From the IMG/VR virus record IMGVR_UViG_2512047041_000010: a stretch of 41,896 nt of DNA. One strand, given 5' to 3'. The notes beneath the pieces were generated by a model, which was given only the letters and a program-made list of their open reading frames with translations, ran no database searches and was not told where the DNA came from. The DNA is from a virus. Its lineage: Duplodnaviria; Heunggongvirae; Uroviricota; Caudoviricetes. Position 1 is the first letter of the stretch; the number at the start of each line of letters is the position of its first letter. Positions 4,709-36,565 of the stretch are shown one piece after another. The translations under genes and the position numbers were made by a program.

Positions 4709-7700
4709 TTAACGTTCTTCCAGAGACTGAATCCGCTCTTTTATCTTATCCATTTCTCTGCGCTGCCATGCTGCCTCGATATAGAATAAGAGATCAGGTC
4801 TGACCCCCCATCTAGATCCTGCTGGCGTTATTTCAACGCGCTCAATGATGTCTTCCATTACCATCACTGGATTATCATCCTCATCAACAATGATGCTCCC
4901 GTCATTATCAGTCAGCGGCATTTCCCTTTGGCCAGTAATGACGTCATCATATACTGCGGGATAATCGTCATAGCAAAGAAAGGCATAGCGGCATGTTGTG
5001 CTTTCTTCTTCCATGAGTCCGTGAGAAATAAGAACATCACGAAGTTGCTGCGCGATTACACCATGATGTATCCTCGCCCCTTCTTCCCCCTTTATAGCGA
5101 CAGCGTTCAGCCATTTATAAGCGATATACCTGACGTCACCCCAGGCATCCAGCAATGCTTCGTCAGGAGAGACCGGCTCTGTCTTTAATGTTCCGTCACT
5201 GGTAACCACAGGATTGGAGCCAAGATAAACTGTCGAGAACCTGTTTCCCGGACCACCAAGAGCATTTACATTATCAAGATAAGGTTTAACATCTCCGTTC
5301 TCAAAAAGATGTTCGAGTGCGTTATATACCGCGCGACGTGGAGTACTGCTTCCGGAACCATGCAACGTTATCATTGCACCATCTGCTGAAGACGTTGTTT
5401 CACCGCCGCTAACGATTAATCTCTGAGCGGTAACATCATCAGACGGTACTTTCTTCGCAATAATGGCGTAATTACCCTCAAGTTTGACTTCCGCGCGAAC
5501 TTGTCCTGATGTACCTGCATGGACAGTCAGTGACTGGACGGCAACATCATCTGTGAAATCAACGGGTACAGGAACCGTCCTCACGCCTGACGTCGACATA
5601 AAAGTAGGAAGCGTTCTGTTAGGAGTGGCTCCGTAGACAAAATCCCTTGAAACAAATTCTTCCTGTTTAATTTTCACCCTGAAACAATACAAATCAGCCG
5701 GGTGACCATCGTGAACATAAGGATATTTTCTGTTGTTATCCCCTATGCTCCATGGGTTTAGAAAGTCTTCCCCACCGAAAATGTAGTACAGCCAGTTGTC
5801 TTTGATACAAACTGAACCAACACCAACCGCAGAGTTAACTATTCCGCCCTGATAAATCTGATCAGTAACATTAACCCACTCTACATTATCCAGACTCCAC
5901 TCATTGACGTTAACTCTGGTCATAAATGTTCTTGGATAATTTCCTGCATAACGGTTATCAGGCTCTCCTCCTTCCCACTCACCAAATGCGCGCTCACTGC
6001 CAAAAATAACCAGCTCATCGCCAACTTTGGCAAAAGGAAGGTTTGAGTGATGAACATTATTTGGGAAGCGAAGAGAATTCCATGATGTACCTAAATCAGA
6101 GCTTCTGTGCAATGAACTACCGGGTTGAGTACTTAATGTCCCCCTGGTCGTCAGATACAGAATGCCATCATAATATTTTACACATGGCTCAGATGCATTC
6201 GCCTCATATTCTGCAGGTATGCGTCTGCGAACAAAGCTACCAGGAGAACCGAAAGCATCAGAGAAATAGAGTATCCCAAGCTCGCGTGGACCAATATCAC
6301 CATTATGGTAGCCAACAGCAAAACTGTTATCGCTAATCGTCGCAAAACTGTGAATCTCAGTAACAGGAGTGCTTCCGTCAACAAAAGAAGGAATAGTTCC
6401 AAGACTGGTTTTTCTCCATGGTGACGAGTGAAATGATGTGCCAAAACTCCAGTATCTACCCTCGTTATTCTGATCCACATCCTGGGTATTTTGCGTCGTA
6501 ACTGTAAAGGTATTTTTATCAATAACAGTAGTCACCGTCATATTCCCGGTAACACCTGTAACACCAGAGTTTGAGAAGTTGACAAAATCACCAGCAAATA
6601 ATCCGTGATCAGTAATGCGAATATAAGCGACTTGCTGATTTGCTGCTTTCGTTATACCACCATAAACGCGAAGGCTGCGACTCATTGGGCGATCCCACAA
6701 CTCTGCAACCTGCAGTTTATTTCCGCTCACGGTCCGCGTCTCAATTACAGCAAAAAGGCGATTTCTGACAACCCCCATACTCATGCAGTGATAGTTAACT
6801 GTGGGATAGTTTTCATGTAAATCTGTAAGCCATTCCGGCGTTGTCCAGGTCTTCCCGTCATCTCCTGAGCGAACCCATGCAACATGGAGGTTATTTACAC
6901 CATGGCGGTCTCCAGCCATAAAAGGCGCATAGATGACATTGTCATATACAAACGTTTTATCCTGCGTCCAGGCGTTGTACCACGGTGTATCTGTAATTTT
7001 AAATAACTCTCCCTGGATAAAATCTTCAGAAGCATAAAAAAGAGGCTGGCCCGGTATTCTCTCAAATAAAAAACGAGCATTTTTAAATCGACTGACATCC
7101 GGAAGAGTTGATACTTTAAAAGTAAGCCCTAATCCGTCAATTTTATAACCTGGAGATGAGGCTTCAAGGCACGCGCTTATTGCAGTGGAATCGTCATTTA
7201 TACCATCACCAACAGCTCCAAAATCTTTGGGGCTAATAGCATCACGCATTTTATCCTGGAACGTTCGGTACACAGCCCCAGAACCATACTGAATAAACCA
7301 ACCAAAACCACCAACAACCCCGGCGATTGCAGCATCGACATAATTACGCATTGAGCGATTATTTACAGCGTCCTGCTCAAATGATGGATCTGCAAGGTTA
7401 GAAATTTTGTTTTGCTTTGCATCGTAATATTTTGCAAGCAAAGATGGTTTCATCAATGCACGTCTGAACCACCCAAAACATTGCTGGATCAGCATCGTCA
7501 GGTAGTCAAAGGCATCTTCATGCACTTCGGGGAAAAATTTTCCCTGATTGCGAAGGTCTGTCTCCTGCACTACATCAAGCACACGATCTATCGTAATTCG
7601 CCATCCAGTAGCAAGCGGAGACGGAAGAACCACAGAACCGCCACTATAAGTGCCCGCCCCAGTTACCGTATAACCGGTATCCAGAACCAATTCTGTTACG

Positions 7701-7828
7701 TTCCCGTTCAGGTCAGACACCTGAACAACCAGGTCTGATTTTCTGAAAATTCGAAAAGTATACGGAAACGATGTCGTAACGCCGTTACCGGTGTATTCGT
7801 TGTGGTCAACTTCGGTTGAGACCGTCAT
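4709..7828 (-). CDS. tailspike/tail fibre with sialidase-like beta-propeller domain and C-terminal peptidase S74 intramolecular chaperone domain (putative endosialidase)
   Basis: 1039 aa. N-terminal block MTVSTEVDHNEYTGNGVTTSFPYTFRIF recognised as a phage tail-fibre anchoring domain; two perfect Asp-boxes (SGDDGKTW, SSDLGTSW) and an xRIP motif (FERIP); C-terminus (SDGTLKTEPVSPDEALLDAWGDV...ARIHHGVIAQQL) resembles the self-cleaving chaperone of endosialidases and T5 L-shaped tail fibre. Confidence 0.7.
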   Translation of the reverse strand: MTVSTEVDHNEYTGNGVTTSFPYTFRIFRKSDLVVQVSDLNGNVTELVLDTGYTVTGAGTYSGGSVVLPSPLATGWRITIDRVLDVVQETDLRNQGKFFPEVHEDAFDYLTMLIQQCFGWFRRALMKPSLLAKYYDAKQNKISNLADPSFEQDAVNNRSMRNYVDAAIAGVVGGFGWFIQYGSGAVYRTFQDKMRDAISPKDFGAVGDGINDDSTAISACLEASSPGYKIDGLGLTFKVSTLPDVSRFKNARFLFERIPGQPLFYASEDFIQGELFKITDTPWYNAWTQDKTFVYDNVIYAPFMAGDRHGVNNLHVAWVRSGDDGKTWTTPEWLTDLHENYPTVNYHCMSMGVVRNRLFAVIETRTVSGNKLQVAELWDRPMSRSLRVYGGITKAANQQVAYIRITDHGLFAGDFVNFSNSGVTGVTGNMTVTTVIDKNTFTVTTQNTQDVDQNNEGRYWSFGTSFHSSPWRKTSLGTIPSFVDGSTPVTEIHSFATISDNSFAVGYHNGDIGPRELGILYFSDAFGSPGSFVRRRIPAEYEANASEPCVKYYDGILYLTTRGTLSTQPGSSLHRSSDLGTSWNSLRFPNNVHHSNLPFAKVGDELVIFGSERAFGEWEGGEPDNRYAGNYPRTFMTRVNVNEWSLDNVEWVNVTDQIYQGGIVNSAVGVGSVCIKDNWLYYIFGGEDFLNPWSIGDNNRKYPYVHDGHPADLYCFRVKIKQEEFVSRDFVYGATPNRTLPTFMSTSGVRTVPVPVDFTDDVAVQSLTVHAGTSGQVRAEVKLEGNYAIIAKKVPSDDVTAQRLIVSGGETTSSADGAMITLHGSGSSTPRRAVYNALEHLFENGDVKPYLDNVNALGGPGNRFSTVYLGSNPVVTSDGTLKTEPVSPDEALLDAWGDVRYIAYKWLNAVAIKGEEGARIHHGVIAQQLRDVLISHGLMEEESTTCRYAFLCYDDYPAVYDDVITGQREMPLTDNDGSIIVDEDDNPVMVMEDIIERVEITPAGSRWGVRPDLLFYIEAAWQRREMDKIKERIQSLEER

Positions 7829-8360: not shown

Positions 8361-8440
8361 CGGGCACTGGCAAAATCCAGTGCCGGGATTGGCGTCCCGG
8401 GTTACTAAGTGGCGCATACCACGCCAGACGTGGTTTTTTT
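8361..8440 (+). ncRNA. putative small structured RNA upstream of the antirepressor gene (possibly c4/antisense-type regulator)
   Basis: No ORF; stem-loop GGCACTGG/CAGTGCC, second stem CCGGGA/TCCCGG, then intrinsic terminator CCACG-ccaga-CGTGG + TTTTTTT (8419..8440). Carries ACTAAGTGG, which recurs at the antirepressor RBS, with its complement CCACTTAGG in between. Boundaries are approximate. Confidence 0.3.
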
Positions 8441-8596
8441 ATGCGTTAAGCACAGCTATATCCGAATTATGGTGGGCTGGGCAGGGGTCCGAAAGGACGC
8501 CGGTACCACTTAGGCCGGTACGCCAACCTTGTCCAGTTCACCACCAGTAATTGGCGTTGCGGTGGTGATTAAAATCACTAAGTGGAGATAACCACC

Positions 8597-9307
8597 ATGG
8601 CTAATGCTCAAACTGCCATCTTCAAATTTGAATCTGTTAACCCTATCCGTTCCATCATTATCGATGGCCAACCATGGTTTGTAGCCCAAGACGTTTGTAG
8701 TGCGCTGCGTATCCAAAACGTCACCCAAGCACTTGAAAAACTGGATGATGATGAAAGGTCTATGTTCAACATAGGGCATGAACATCGTGCAATTTTTGAC
8801 AGCCGAGTAAAAGAGATCAACATTATCTCCGAGTCAGGCCTCTACACACTGATCCTCCGCTGCCGCGACGCAGTGACACCAGGCACTACCCCCTACCGCT
8901 TTCGTAAATGGGTTACAGGTGAGGTTCTTCCTCAGATCCGCCGCACCGGAAGTTACATTAAAAACTCGCTCCCGCAGGAAGAGCGCATAAAGATGGTTGC
9001 CGACCAGGTAGCCAGCGCCACAGCATCAGCAGTGATGCAGGCAATGAAGGTAGAGAACAAAACCTACAGCGCCCCGCTGAAGCCCGGCTACCGCAGCCTG
9101 ATTCACTCGCCGTCTGGTGTTCTCGGCCTGACGGAAAACTCACTGCTGATGAATCTGCTGAACCAGTTACAGGAAGACGGGCACGACGTATCGGGCGCGG
9201 CGGCGGAGGTGACCACCATGTTCTGCTACATCGTCGGTGTGAGTAAATGCCTGCGTGATATCCAGACCCACGCGGAATACATCAACGACAAGGCAGGGTT
9301 CTTCTGA
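8597..9307 (+). CDS. phage antirepressor (Bro-N N-terminal domain plus C-terminal Ant domain)
   Basis: Start at ATG 8597, preceded by SD GGAGA; N-terminal FESVNPIRSIIIDGQPWFVAQDVCSAL is Bro-N/KilA-N-like; C-terminus homologous to the 8024..8281 product. Confidence 0.75.
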   Translation: MANAQTAIFKFESVNPIRSIIIDGQPWFVAQDVCSALRIQNVTQALEKLDDDERSMFNIGHEHRAIFDSRVKEINIISESGLYTLILRCRDAVTPGTTPYRFRKWVTGEVLPQIRRTGSYIKNSLPQEERIKMVADQVASATASAVMQAMKVENKTYSAPLKPGYRSLIHSPSGVLGLTENSLLMNLLNQLQEDGHDVSGAAAEVTTMFCYIVGVSKCLRDIQTHAEYINDKAGFF

Positions 9308-21862: not shown

Positions 21863-22191
21863 TACTCACCCCCATTGCCGTACAGGGTTTCAGCCGCTGA
21901 TTTTTCTACATCCCCGGAAACAGGAGCGATCGCCATATCAGTGATCTGCAGATCGGCGCTGCGATTAACACCATCGTCAGTTTCTCTGGCAGACAGGCCT
22001 CGAATAACAGCTTTTGCAGTTATCATCACTTCTGTTCCGACGCCCTGAGGTTGCGCCTTCAGCTTATTCAATGTGTCGTTATTAAGAGTGATGCACAGCC
22101 CCCACGGGTATTCATCGCGAGTTCTGGTTTCTCCGCTCTCATCCTGGTAGCTGTCAGTGCCGGTTTTGAGGTTTACGAGTTCCATATACAC
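21862..22191 (-). CDS. hypothetical virion-associated protein
   Basis: 109-aa ORF in the structural operon. Confidence 0.4.
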   Translation of the reverse strand: MYMELVNLKTGTDSYQDESGETRTRDEYPWGLCITLNNDTLNKLKAQPQGVGTEVMITAKAVIRGLSARETDDGVNRSADLQITDMAIAPVSGDVEKSAAETLYGNGGE

Positions 22192-27390: not shown

Positions 27391-27467
27391 GTGGCATTAG
27401 CTCAGTTGGACAGAGCAACCGCCTTCTAAGCGGTTGGTCGCAGGTTCGAATCCTGCATGCCACGCCA
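27391..27467 (+). tRNA. tRNA-Arg (anticodon UCU)
   Basis: 77-nt cloverleaf: acceptor GTGGCAT/ATGCCAC, anticodon stem ACCGC/GCGGT with loop CTTCTAA, T-arm GCAGG-TTCGAAT-CCTGC, encoded CCA end. Confidence 0.9.
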
Positions 27468-33631: not shown

Positions 33632-34432
33632 TTACTTGATAAATCCTGCCGCCTTTCCCCGCCTGTATTCCTCCATCAGCCACTGCGCCGGTGTTATTCC
33701 CCCAAGGGTGGCGGCGTTAGGCATGCACCCGAAACTTCGCCCTGGTGGATGGTAAACGTCTCTCCCTGTGTCCGGAGGTGTACTCATGGGCTCTCGCTTT
33801 GCCTGTATGCTGATCACCGGATCGGGTATCTGCTGTCCGGAAGCTACCTTTTTCGCCCAATCATCGAGCAGCCTGCGCGCGTGTTTCTCAACCTCAATCT
33901 CGCTAAGCTGGCGCTGATACATTGCACGGCGGGTATCACATACGACCCAGTACATAACCGGATGTCGCCACGGGAATCTTTCGGGACCACCAGGATATAA
34001 ACTTTTTTCCTTGCTGTACCGGTGAAACTCCGCCATCACATCGTCAATGGTGACGCCAAGAACCATCTTGCTGTCTTTACACCACTTGATGAATTGCCCT
34101 GGCGACGGCCAGAACGGAGACTCACTGGCGCGGGCGTGGCGCATACCAGCAGAAACCTGTTCACGGGTTCGGATCCCCCCTTCGGCAAACGCAGCAATCC
34201 ACTGCTGTTTTGCAGCAACTTCCTGCTCTGGCGTCTTCAGGTTGGTTACCACTGCCGCCGGAAACAGTTGTTTCAGCTGTTTGAAAAGGGCATCAACAAG
34301 CCTCTCTGCTGACATGTTCACCACGTTGTCATTGTTGGTGTACTGATGCTCATAACCTGACATGCGAGAAAGGGCTTCTCCGTCACGGTTTTGTATCGCG
34401 GTAAAAACGTTGTTCACAAGAAATCCTCCCAT
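33632..34432 (-). CDS. replication protein P-like (helicase loader)
   Basis: Block FPAAVVTNLKTPEQEVAAKQQWIAAFAEGGIRTREQVSAGMRHARASESPFWPSPGQFIKWC aligns by eye with lambda P (FPASLANRDQNEVNEIRRQWVLAFRENGITTMEQVNAGMRVARRQNRPFLPSPGQFVAWC). Confidence 0.8.
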   Translation of the reverse strand: MGGFLVNNVFTAIQNRDGEALSRMSGYEHQYTNNDNVVNMSAERLVDALFKQLKQLFPAAVVTNLKTPEQEVAAKQQWIAAFAEGGIRTREQVSAGMRHARASESPFWPSPGQFIKWCKDSKMVLGVTIDDVMAEFHRYSKEKSLYPGGPERFPWRHPVMYWVVCDTRRAMYQRQLSEIEVEKHARRLLDDWAKKVASGQQIPDPVISIQAKREPMSTPPDTGRDVYHPPGRSFGCMPNAATLGGITPAQWLMEEYRRGKAAGFIK

Positions 34433-35229
34433 GCTTCAGGGCTGTTCCAGTGTGGAACGTTGTTATCAGGTAATGTTGATTGCTTCTGTCTGCTAATCTG
34501 CAGCCTCCTTGCCAGCTTCTGCTCCCACTGTGCCTGATGGTATGCCTTACCCTCAGCCATCCAGTAAATTCTGAACTCTGCAAGTTCCTGTGCCGTTGGC
34601 AGACTGTCCAGGTAGATCCCCTGCAATGAGCTTTTCCGAAGAAAGTCATCTGATGGTTGCCATTGTTCATGCATGACAAATTTGCCTAATTGCCCTGGCC
34701 CACCAGGAGGAACAAAGTTATTCATCACGGCGTTGTTTGCGCCGGGGTCATGAGACACAGAATCCCCGTTTTTTGTCCTGCTCTCCCTCTCTTGGTTAAA
34801 TGACTGGTTATATGACTGGTTCTGGATCCCGTTTTTGGGATCATTCAACATCCCGTTTTTGGGATCATTCAACATCCCGTTTTTGGGTATATTCCCGTTT
34901 TCGGTAACATTACCGTTTTCGGGTTCATTACCCCCTTCCCGGTTGCCTTTAATGTTCCCGTTTTTGGTTATATTAAGAGAGAAAACCCGCACTCTTTTCG
35001 TCGCTCCCTTTCTCTCTCCGGTATCTGAAATAAGCCCCATTTTCATGAGCGATATAAGTCCGGCCTGCACGGTTTTTTTATTCAGGCAAGTGTCTTTAAC
35101 GAGGCGTTCTATGCTGGGGTAGCAGAGGTTATATTCATCGGCTCTGTCAGCCATCGAGAGCAGTATGAGCTTTAATGACGAGCTACCTGGATCTGTCTCC
35201 CAGGCCCAATCTGTTGCATGTCTGCTCAT
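34414..35229 (-). CDS. replication initiator O-like protein (contains the origin iterons)
   Basis: SD GGAG upstream; winged-helix-like N-terminus; central Asn/Gly-rich repeats encoded by the iteron array; translationally coupled to the P-like gene. Confidence 0.6.
   Translation of the reverse strand: MSRHATDWAWETDPGSSSLKLILLSMADRADEYNLCYPSIERLVKDTCLNKKTVQAGLISLMKMGLISDTGERKGATKRVRVFSLNITKNGNIKGNREGGNEPENGNVTENGNIPKNGMLNDPKNGMLNDPKNGIQNQSYNQSFNQERESRTKNGDSVSHDPGANNAVMNNFVPPGGPGQLGKFVMHEQWQPSDDFLRKSSLQGIYLDSLPTAQELAEFRIYWMAEGKAYHQAQWEQKLARRLQISRQKQSTLPDNNVPHWNSPEAWEDFL
34760..34975. repeat. origin-like iteron array inside the O-like gene
   Basis: Six to seven copies of TCCCGTTTTTGGGA-type repeats (two identical 24-mers ATCCCGTTTTTGGGATCATTCAAC at 34826 and 34850) plus direct repeat TGACTGGTT x2; arrangement like ori-lambda iterons within O. 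Confidence 0.65.
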
Positions 35230-35244
35230 GATTAATCTCCGCTA

Positions 35245-35445
35245 TCAGCTTGAATGTTGTGGGGAGGAATTAATCATGATCTGCTTAATCTCTGCCCTGA
35301 TACGACGGTTTGATTCCATGGTGCACTCAACACAGTGTCCGTTGTAAACCCAGCGTTCACTGTCATGTCCGTGCTTACATGTTTTTCCGGTGTAGTAGCG
35401 TTTAAGTCCGCGCTTTGCGGCATCAATACGTGTAATGATTTCCAT
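35245..35445 (-). CDS. small zinc-finger protein in cII-equivalent position
   Basis: Start taken at MEIITRIDAAK (SD AGGG); motif CKHGHDSERWVYNGHCVEC; lies between the Cro-like gene and the O-like gene. Confidence 0.45.
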   Translation of the reverse strand: MEIITRIDAAKRGLKRYYTGKTCKHGHDSERWVYNGHCVECTMESNRRIRAEIKQIMINSSPQHSS

Positions 35446-35595: not shown

Positions 35596-35826
35596 TCATG
35601 AGTAGAAGAAGTATGCCAGTTCTGCTTTTGAGCGCAGCCATTGTCTTGTTTTACAGGCTTTAAAAAGCCCATTCATCAATACTTTACCTGGCATTTTGCG
35701 CTTACCTGTTAAGTGAGTCTGGATATAGTGACTCGTCGTTCCGGCTTCCTGTGCGAAGGCTTCACGCTCATCCGGAGTAAGTGCAAGCCAGTGCTTTTTG
35801 AAATCGAAATGTCCGTTATCGCTCAT
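35596..35826 (-). CDS. Cro-like repressor (YdaS/DUF1019-type HTH)
   Basis: 76-aa HTH protein divergent from the repressor gene across a three-operator region; first gene of the replication-side early operon. Confidence 0.6.
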   Translation of the reverse strand: MSDNGHFDFKKHWLALTPDEREAFAQEAGTTSHYIQTHLTGKRKMPGKVLMNGLFKACKTRQWLRSKAELAYFFYS

Positions 35827-35860
35827 AGCTATTGCCTGATATTTATTTCAGATAATAAAT

Positions 35861-35926
35861 ATTCACCCATAAGGTAACAAAAATCAAGGATAGTTACCTA
35901 TGAGGTGCATTTACCTGTTGGGTAAT
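35861..35926. promoter_or_regulatory. OR-like region: three adjacent operator sites (ATTCACCCATAAGGTAAC, TTACCTATGAGGTGC, TTTACCTGTTGGGTAAT) with divergent promoters
   Basis: Three TTACC-N5-GGTAA-type palindromes (one perfect, two degenerate) between divergent HTH genes; minus-strand promoter-like -35 TTGTTA / -10 TATTAT overlaps the leftmost site. Confidence 0.6.
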
Positions 35927-35980: not shown

Positions 35981-36565
35981 ATGAAAAGTATCCAGGACGT
36001 CCGCAGGCAAAATCTCAACGACTTGATCGACCGTGAATTCAATGGTGTTCAGACGCGGATGGCAGAAAAACTTGGAACTCAGGCAAATCTGGTAAACCGC
36101 TGGGCTCTTGGCAAGAAGGTTATCGGCGACCAGGTTGCGCGAAAAATTGAAGCTGCCGCCAATAAACCACGTAACTGGCTTGATATCGATCGCTCGCTTT
36201 CTCAGGAAGGTTTTCAGCCTGTCGGCCCAAGCGACATTGGTCAGCTGGCGGCTCACAACCTGGAACGCTGGATGAGCGAAAGCCGCGACCTTTCAACACA
36301 GGGAAAACTTCACCGCGCATCCGGCGTCGCCCAGGTGACAATCAGCCGCCTGTTAAACAATGAGGTCAGCGTTTCCATTTCCACCCTGGAGAATGTTGCA
36401 TCCGCATTCGGGCGTCACGGCTATGAATTACTGATTCACCCGCACGACCCTGCGACCATCAACTATGACCGCTCGCGCTACGCATTGTTACCCGAAACCG
36501 AGAAAGCAAAGATCGAAAGTTACATTGAATTTGTCATCAACCAGAACGAAAAAAGCAAAAAATAA
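35981..36565 (+). CDS. CI-like prophage repressor, double-HTH type without LexA-like autocleavage domain
   Basis: 194 aa with two Cro/C1-type HTH segments (QTRMAEKLGTQANLVNRW and GKLHRASGVAQVTISRLL); no Ala-Gly/Ser-Lys peptidase S24 signature; flanked by operator clusters on both sides; own terminator downstream. Confidence 0.6.
   Translation: MKSIQDVRRQNLNDLIDREFNGVQTRMAEKLGTQANLVNRWALGKKVIGDQVARKIEAAANKPRNWLDIDRSLSQEGFQPVGPSDIGQLAAHNLERWMSESRDLSTQGKLHRASGVAQVTISRLLNNEVSVSISTLENVASAFGRHGYELLIHPHDPATINYDRSRYALLPETEKAKIESYIEFVINQNEKSKK

Follow-up and report, generated by a model that had tools for sequence, protein, structure and literature searches.

Where an epsilon15-like prophage of Escherichia coli starts to replicate is not stated in the records of its relatives, which annotate no origin, and the question is raised by a viral DNA stretch of 41,896 nucleotides (IMG/VR record IMGVR_UViG_2512047041_000010, Caudoviricetes; hereafter the window), in which short repeats lie in the middle of a replication initiator gene on the minus strand (34414-35229). 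The interval 34763-34969 is very probably the iteron array of a phage replication origin, embedded in the gene of its own initiator. A lambda-style design of this kind is to be expected, while the initiator family and the conserved grammar of its origins appear to be undescribed in the literature searched. Three results place the interval in this functional class, namely an array of dyad repeats inside the initiator open reading frame (ORF), a constraint at the DNA level in the family, and an adjoining downstream gene for a P-family helicase loader. Repeats, dyad symmetry, position, DNA-level conservation in the family, domain identities and gene order were all computed directly.

Seven copies of a dyad-symmetric site with the sense strand TCCC-AAAAAC-GGGA lie in the same orientation at 34763-34969, all inside the minus-strand ORF. 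An earlier reading made from the letters of the window alone (the sequence-only reading) had described six to seven repeats, including two identical 24-mers, within the initiator gene and encoding its Asn/Gly-rich linker, and each part of this description was recovered: Tandem Repeats Finder (TRF), a repeat search and a weight matrix together give six strong copies and one degenerate copy, and the tandem-repeat check finds 34826-34849 identical to 34850-34873. TRF reports a 24-nt unit (2.6 copies at 34826-34887, 100% matches), an 18-nt unit (3.1 copies at 34877-34932) and a 12-nt unit (2.4 copies at 34793-34821), and the repeat search places six copies from 34826, 34850, 34874, 34892, 34910 and 34955, at spacings of 24, 24, 18, 18 and 45 nt. 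Matches to TCCCGTTTTTGGGA are exact at 34827 and 34851, with one mismatch at 34875, two at 34893 and 34956, and three at 34911. The core CCGTTTTYGG occurs six times in the 41.9-kb window, always within 34829-34967, where 0.15 occurrences were expected and none of 100 shuffles reached six. A weight matrix derived from the family (see below) adds the degenerate seventh copy at 34761-34780 (11.9 bits), and elsewhere in the window it yields isolated weak matches only (at most 11.8 bits). On the sense strand, the sequence of the 24-bp unit is AATGATCCC-AAAAAC-GGGATGTT; the peptide encoded by the array is NITKNGNIKGNREGGNEPENGNVTENGNIPKNGMLNDPKNGMLNDPKNGIQNQSYNQSFNQ, and its Asn/Gly-rich stretch is NITKNGN...PKNGMLNDPKNGMLNDPKNGIQNQSYNQSFNQ. 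In the direction of transcription, the sites are:

34956-34969, minus strand: iteron 1, the first to be transcribed; sense AACCAAAAACGGGA; 17.1 bits
34911-34924, minus strand: iteron 2; sense ACCCGAAAACGGTA; 17.5 bits
34893-34906, minus strand: iteron 3; sense TACCGAAAACGGGA; 16.3 bits
34875-34888, minus strand: iteron 4; sense ACCCAAAAACGGGA; 18.9 bits
34851-34864, minus strand: iteron 5, inside an exact 24-mer; sense TCCCAAAAACGGGA; 19.8 bits
34827-34840, minus strand: iteron 6, the last strong copy, inside an exact 24-mer; sense TCCCAAAAACGGGA; 20.5 bits
34763-34776, minus strand: iteron 7, degenerate, 3' of the periodic element described below; sense ACAAAAAACGGGGA; 11.9 bits

GATC (Dam) sites are found at 34825, 34839 and 34863, thus within 40 bp, at iterons 5 and 6 and at the junction with the periodic element; this trio ties for the densest cluster of the window, as another 60-nt stretch near 21926 also holds three. 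In Enterobacterales members of the family, iterons often have GATCCC as their left flank. Rfam gives no RNA family within the array interval.

The protein encoded across the array joins a DNA-binding domain to a DnaT-like domain through the repeat-encoded linker:

34972-35229, minus strand: HTH_36 winged-helix N-domain, residues 1-86 (Pfam HTH_36 at residues 18-67, E = 1.8e-10)
between these domains, minus strand: Asn/Gly-rich linker, residues 87-179, encoded by the putative origin DNA
34435-34692, minus strand: DnaT-like C-domain for binding single-stranded DNA (ssDNA), residues 180-265 (Pfam DnaT at residues 184-252, E = 1.1e-15)

Along its whole length the initiator matches phrog_1032, 'replication initiation protein' (E = 1e-108), and its residues 180-265 match chains 4ou6 and 9zbt of the E. 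coli DnaT C-domain in the PDB (E about 1e-20), aligning to DnaT residues 85-170; by cryo-electron microscopy, the DnaT C-domain makes a helical filament on ssDNA (PMC13377028). The winged-helix N-domain is presumed to be the module that recognizes the iterons. A single-sequence AlphaFold2 model of the initiator has a mean predicted local distance difference test score of 37.5, low over the whole protein, which makes it unusable and uninformative on the linker.

The best 120 database homologues of the initiator are all E. coli variants of at least 87% identity; diverse loci were obtained by scanning one genome per species with an alignment of the N-domain, which gave 80 loci from genome contigs. 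The resulting survey of 81 N-domain loci spans Enterobacterales to Acinetobacter, Vibrio and Desulfovibrio, and its family matrix was seeded from the six strong sites of the window. At least three matrix matches fall at gene nucleotides 200-620 in 73 of the 81 loci, and this interval, about 13% of the DNA scanned, collects 341 of the 387 sense-strand matches. The same arrangement is seen in PPompW, Edwardsiella GF-2, Edno5, Vibrio H20 and Acinetobacter AP22, whose N-domains are 35-50% identical to that of the window and which carry CCCAAAAnnGGGA-type repeats directly 3' of the N-domain, often as 24-nt units, with 3-8 matrix matches of 9-26 bits. Tyrion, SPN1S, TL-2011b and Rac YdaU, which share only the DnaT-like C-domain, have 0-2 isolated matches of at most 9 bits across the locus on both strands. 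These comparisons identify the motif as a cis-acting element in the DNA whose presence follows the N-terminal DNA-binding domain and not the C-domain. The N-domain is joined to a DnaT-like C-domain in the window phage and PPompW, to a lambda-O-type C-domain in GF-2 and Edno5, and to others in AP22 and H20, so that N-domain and iterons form a module.

The 354 distinct sites of the family keep CC and GG about 99% invariant, 6 nt apart around an A-rich center, whose variants in the 76 distinct family arrays include AAAAAC, AACAAC and AAATTT. The flanks are partly symmetric out to AA...TT, which extends the dyad to about 24 bp, the length of the repeat unit; such a dyad is, judged by its form, the signature of a dimer-binding site. 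In some family members (L214, L221, L225, L227, L240 and L243) inverted partial copies (cccgtttttcc) stand between the direct iterons. A second conserved element follows the sites, and in the window it comes after iteron 6, with the degenerate iteron 7 downstream of it:

34790-34826, minus strand: periodic element of about three tandem 12-nt units found by TRF; sense CCAGAACCAGTCAT ATAACCAGTCAT TTAACCAAGA

This element opens with rGAAyC. In 72 of the 76 arrays one iteron, and only one, is immediately followed by this motif (background 0.8%), and in 67 of the 72 that iteron is the last matrix match. The rGAAyC motif begins 2-4 tandem units of 10-13 nt, mostly 12-13 nt; it occurs in each of the three frames and whatever the type of C-domain. 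As family means, the 45 nt after this point are 68.5% AT, compared with 55.7% for the loci overall. The periodic element is likely, although with low certainty, an unwinding or strand-capture region; a set of iteron half-sites or a site for a host factor are further candidates for its role.

An array that binds its initiator need not be a start site, and the sites could instead serve control, by autoregulation, titration and copy control, or exclusion of related phages, with the true start elsewhere. This is improbable, even though the array has no strong AT-rich tract beside it and no DnaA box (TTWTNCACA) in 34300-35400 or IHF consensus site nearby, its highly polymorphic copy number would be tolerable for a titration device, and ectopic copies of the lambda origin are known to inhibit phage growth (PMC4488673; PMC3349717). 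The succession of iterons, periodic AT-enriched element and, in some members, a palindrome mirrors the origins of lambda and P22 rather than an operator, and the array sits in the middle of the gene, some 900 bp away from the promoter-like site; moreover, control and origin roles are not mutually exclusive.

Several points do weigh against an origin at 34763-34969. A lambda-like 40-bp tract of about 80% AT was sought in the window phage and no strong one was found: the periodic element itself is about 56% AT and only some 1.4 standard deviations less stable than average (-49.3 kcal per 40-mer, window mean -54.9, standard deviation 4.0), and the least stable 40-mer of the gene (34947-34986) is at the opposite end of the array. 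Homology of the initiator to lambda O could not be demonstrated by BLASTP, PF04492 or a hidden Markov model (HMM) of the N-domain, and no paper was found on binding or origin firing in any member of the family. The motif lies right beside the segment that codes for the N-domain, and the two could therefore occur together through linkage and not through recognition. Codons that are rare but required by the motif are used in the linker (Pro CCC in 4 of 4 cases, background 9.5%; Gly GGG in 7 of 10, background 16.8%), which is suggestive of a constraint on the DNA, but, as the repeat units are copies of each other, p-values for this codon usage overstate its significance. Finally, all seven sites of the window are in one reading frame at spacings that are multiples of 3, hence the window alone cannot separate selection on DNA from selection on the peptide, and the argument rests on the relatives.

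Among these relatives, 56 of the 73 arrays use more than one reading frame. The spacings peak at 17, 18 and 24 nt, with 132 of 265 being multiples of 3, and the single consensus is read, depending on the frame, as PKNG, PKTE or TQKR. In the 21 loci that align without gaps, the information at third codon positions of the N-domain is 0.41 bit (0.56 bit at conserved residues), compared with 1.38 bit overall for the last iteron and its junction (19 of the 21 loci, in which the last iteron followed by the rGAAyC anchor was located) and 1.15 bit at third positions there (the 13 of those 19 loci that share one frame). The variety of frames together with the conservation of third positions argues that it is the DNA, and not the peptide, that is selected.

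This makes it very improbable that the array is only a coding repeat, prone to slippage, that determines how long a flexible Asn/Gly-rich linker is and has no cis-acting function in DNA. The window taken by itself would fit such a repeat, as the spacings preserve the frame, the peptide repeats as well (PKNG/ENGN), the number of units varies freely among close relatives and the linker is of low complexity. A coding repeat does not explain why one DNA consensus recurs in all three frames of the relatives with different peptides, why third codon positions are conserved and CCC and GGG codons almost exclusive, or why the CC-N6-GG dyad is nearly invariant although its central codon changes amino acid (Asn, Ile, Phe or Tyr). 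That the arms form RNA or DNA hairpins, for example as terminators of antisense transcription across the initiator gene, can hardly be credited: a terminator scan does give a stem-loop with a T-run at 34836-34855 and 34860-34879 on the plus (antisense) strand, but these stems of 6 pairs with loops of 8 nt are probably a by-product of neighboring dyad half-sites, the region holds 5 terminator-like sites where shuffles average 3.6 (standard deviation 2.1), the same hairpins would not arise in relatives whose spacing is 17 or 22 nt, and no antisense promoter was identified.

The genes around the array, in which an origin is the reading preferred here, have the order of a lambdoid replication operon:

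34414-35229, minus strand: replication initiator gene, 271 aa, from the ORF and its Pfam, PHROG and PDB DnaT C-domain matches
33632-34432, minus strand: lambda P-family helicase-loader gene (Pfam PF06992 Phage_lambda_P, E = 1.5e-56; phrog_109, 'P-like helicase loader')
35596-35826, minus strand: small cro-like regulator gene at the head of the replication operon (phrog_35, E = 5.6e-13; placed as phiV10 p41)
35981-36565, plus strand: divergent repressor gene with two HTH_3-type motifs (Pfam; phiV10 p40 is annotated 'putative transcriptional repressor')
35852-35880, minus strand: promoter-like site TTGTTA-17-TATTAT, a consensus match only, such sites being no commoner than in shuffles
35574-35555, minus strand: terminator-like site from a scan (phiV10 has an annotated terminator at the equivalent place)

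The P-like gene shares a 19-nt overlap with the end of the initiator gene, across the initiator stop codon, and an 87-aa ORF and the cro-like gene lie upstream of the initiator on the same strand. The promoter-like site would drive the cro-like, 87-aa, initiator and P-like genes and thereby transcription through the putative origin, and the gene order is therefore that of lambda pR-cro-(tR1)-O-P.

The lambda origin lies within the O gene and comprises four inverted-repeat iterons, to which dimers of O bind, and an adjacent 40-bp A+T-rich region; transcription from pR activates it (PMC5043065). The lambda record annotates four iterons, TCCCTCAAAACGAGGGA, inside O, and the P22 record a rep_origin inside gene 18. 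The ori-lambda arrangement that had been proposed for the window from its sequence holds up: in both, the sites lie in the initiator ORF between the segments for the DNA-binding N-domain and the C-domain, as a direct array of dyad sites with CCC/GGG arms around an A-tract and with the A-rich strand as sense strand, a P-family loader gene comes next and overlaps the initiator stop codon, and the operon starts at a repressor/cro switch (repressor/cro-like in the window). The site itself differs in detail, as TCCCTC-AAAAC-GAGGGA in lambda compares with TCCC-AAAAAC-GGGA in the window, where the CCC-GGG gap is 6 nt instead of 9 nt and the arms are thus 3 bp closer. The window has seven sites (six to about eleven in relatives) and lambda four; the sites of the window share one frame, whereas those of lambda are in different frames. 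The downstream segment is about 56% AT in the window and about 78% in lambda, and the 12-nt periodic rGAAyC element occupies the place of the plain 40-bp A+T-rich tract of lambda.

The label 'O-like' given to the gene by the sequence-only reading is justified for function and remote similarity, but not for membership of the Pfam family Phage_rep_O, since the window protein has an HTH_36 N-domain and a DnaT-like C-domain. It gives no match to PF04492 even at E <= 1, where lambda O scores 123 bits and P22 gp18 129 bits; direct homology to either protein was rejected, as BLASTP is not significant and the N-domain HMM gives lambda O 5 bits, barely above decoys. The sole link to lambda O is indirect, through phrog_678 and phrog_345, which are matched by both N-domains. 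The C-domain of lambda O corresponds to positions 133-288 of phrog_391, a span not covered by the window protein. This PHROG is naturally chimeric, its positions 1-162 matching the window protein and 133-288 the lambda O C-domain. This family includes the 'replication protein O' of GF-2 and Edno5, whose N-domain is 41-50% identical to that of the window and is followed by the same type of iteron at the same position (CCCAAAATTGGGA, 24-bp units), the same periodic element and then a P gene. They differ from the window in their C-domain, which is of lambda-O type rather than DnaT-like, and the first iteron of GF-2 is in another frame.

The P22 origin (NC_002371, 32840-32984) likewise has iterons within the initiator gene; an A-rich segment comes next and after it a CCCCC...GGGGG palindrome, which also stands behind the periodic element in the family members L218, L228, L233, L237, L245 and L249. 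Unlike in the window, the initiator gp18 belongs to PF04492 and has a DnaB-like helicase (gene 12) as its partner, and the iteron sequence is unrelated (ATCGGTAAAAC), while the window has no palindrome. Iteron plasmids (RepA, pi, TrfA) also combine replicon-specific initiator-binding repeats beside an unwinding element with a winged-helix initiator (PMC5043065), but the iterons of plasmids are placed outside the rep gene, are bound by monomers and usually come with DnaA boxes, whereas the sites of the window are intragenic and dyad-symmetric without a DnaA box. The Rep_3/RepA class was rejected on these grounds, together with the lack of a Rep_3 match in Pfam.

Public labels for the initiator protein include 'primosomal protein', 'DnaT' and even 'pyocin large subunit', and in the phiV10 record its gene is a 'putative primosomal protein', followed by a 'putative replication protein P' and with no origin annotated. 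The candidate DnaT (primosomal protein I) was rejected, because only residues 180-265 align, with the C-terminal ssDNA-binding domain of E. coli DnaT, and the N-terminus is HTH_36. The window protein lacks the N-domain of DnaT and its PriB-docking linker, has instead an N-terminus of the sequence-specific winged-helix kind, and is encoded in a phage replication operon with a P-like loader; these differences in domains and operon mean that it is not a DnaT orthologue. As judged from its sequence, such names are misleading for a phage origin-binding initiator, whose likeness to DnaT is limited to the C-terminal 85 residues. Literature searches on phiV10 or epsilon15 with iterons, on the text of the motif, and on HTH_36/PF13730 with iterons found no description of this origin, and a paper on Stx phages lists HTH_36 proteins in replication regions with no mention of iterons (PMC8951638).

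From this arrangement we infer binding by the initiator, a place of unwinding, recruitment of P and activity as an origin, which could be connected as follows. Transcription from the early promoter beside the repressor/cro-like switch would yield the initiator and the P-like loader and would also traverse the origin. Dimers of the initiator, through their N-terminal winged helices, would bind the seven dyad-symmetric sites, and the bound array with its A-tracts may distort the DNA and destabilize the adjoining 12-nt-periodic segment. The DnaT-like C-domains, tethered by a flexible linker that the origin itself encodes, would then hold the exposed single strand and could offer a platform for the lambda P-like protein, which would deliver the host DnaB helicase.

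A bolder extension, which we regard as possible but doubtful, is that HTH_36-type initiators form a widespread and undescribed origin family, in which the rGAAyC units would be more than an AT-rich spacer, namely a sequence-specific site for strand opening or ssDNA capture, analogous to DnaA-trios or to the 13-mers of the DNA unwinding elements of plasmids, and on which the DnaT-like C-domains of the phiV10 branch would form filaments. Such a family would range over Enterobacterales, Vibrio, Pseudoalteromonas, Acinetobacter, Marinomonas, Burkholderiales and Desulfovibrionaceae and would share a fixed grammar of CC-N6-GG dyad iterons followed by 2-4 tandem 10-13-nt rGAAyC units. If this were true, origin recognition in the style of lambda O and ssDNA filamentation in the style of DnaT or DnaA would be combined in one polypeptide.

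The array would place an origin in phiV10/epsilon15-like (Uetakevirus) prophages of E. coli and would supply a transferable rule for proteobacterial prophages with this N-domain, namely to seek CC-N6-GG dyads directly 3' of the HTH_36 domain. It would also be a natural case in which one stretch of DNA is both a protein linker and a cis-acting origin, and the interval is a candidate for ori-probe constructs, for studies of incompatibility and exclusion, and for the reading of repeat-number polymorphism. A lambda-type origin is what the paradigm predicts and would leave a specialist unsurprised.

The number of repeats differs even between close relatives. Two scans of viral contigs returned near-identical relatives only and were used for copy-number variation alone: among near-identical E. 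coli prophages, the 24-mer is present in 1 to at least 5 copies, the 18-mer in 1-4 and the 12-mer in 2-3, the initiator ranges from 264 to 311 aa, and the seven sites of the window are near the low end of the range. Stx phages are reported to have more iterons than the four annotated in lambda. TL-2011b-type relatives have exchanged the whole initiator along with about 92 residues at the start of P, whereas residues 93-266 of P are nearly identical with one substitution, which puts a mosaic boundary inside the P-like gene. A joint swap of this kind is expected of a specificity cassette of interacting initiator, origin and loader.

The replication region of the window is 98-99% identical to that of the Escherichia phages phiv142-3, PAS61 and phiV10, which are epsilon15-like podoviruses (Uetakevirus), and 538 of the 5426 complete E. 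coli genomes contain matches to it. A check of plasmid records for an independent replicon based on the initiator module gave one 41-kb circular phiV10-like genome deposited as a plasmid and prophage fragments, a result that is suggestive only. The circular record, NZ_CP079771.1 (E. coli plasmid pHL15EC-2), is a phiV10-like genome of 41,027 bp with the same initiator at 98.9% identity, and its typing as displayed gives 'non-mobilizable' alone, with no type of replicon; this record probably represents a phage genome in circular form and not a plasmid.

Elsewhere, the window holds an IS3-family insertion sequence at 953-2166, with orfA (HTH_Tnp_1) at 953-1279 and orfB (rve integrase core) at 1276-2166, and within this element an ALIL frameshift pseudoknot at 1234-1350 (116 bits). 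The tailspike gene at 4709-7828 (minus strand) encodes a K1-capsule endosialidase of 1039 aa (PF12217, PF12219, PF12195 and PF12218) with a Peptidase_S74 chaperone domain, and the phiV10-like phage of the window is therefore probably K1-specific. Rfam places isrK at 8364-8440 and a C4 antisense RNA at 8465-8548, just upstream of an ORF with a Bro-N domain at 8582-9307, which together look like an antisense-controlled antirepressor module in the style of P1 and P7. A tRNA-Arg gene (anticodon TCT) is located at 27391-27467, in a phage-like region.

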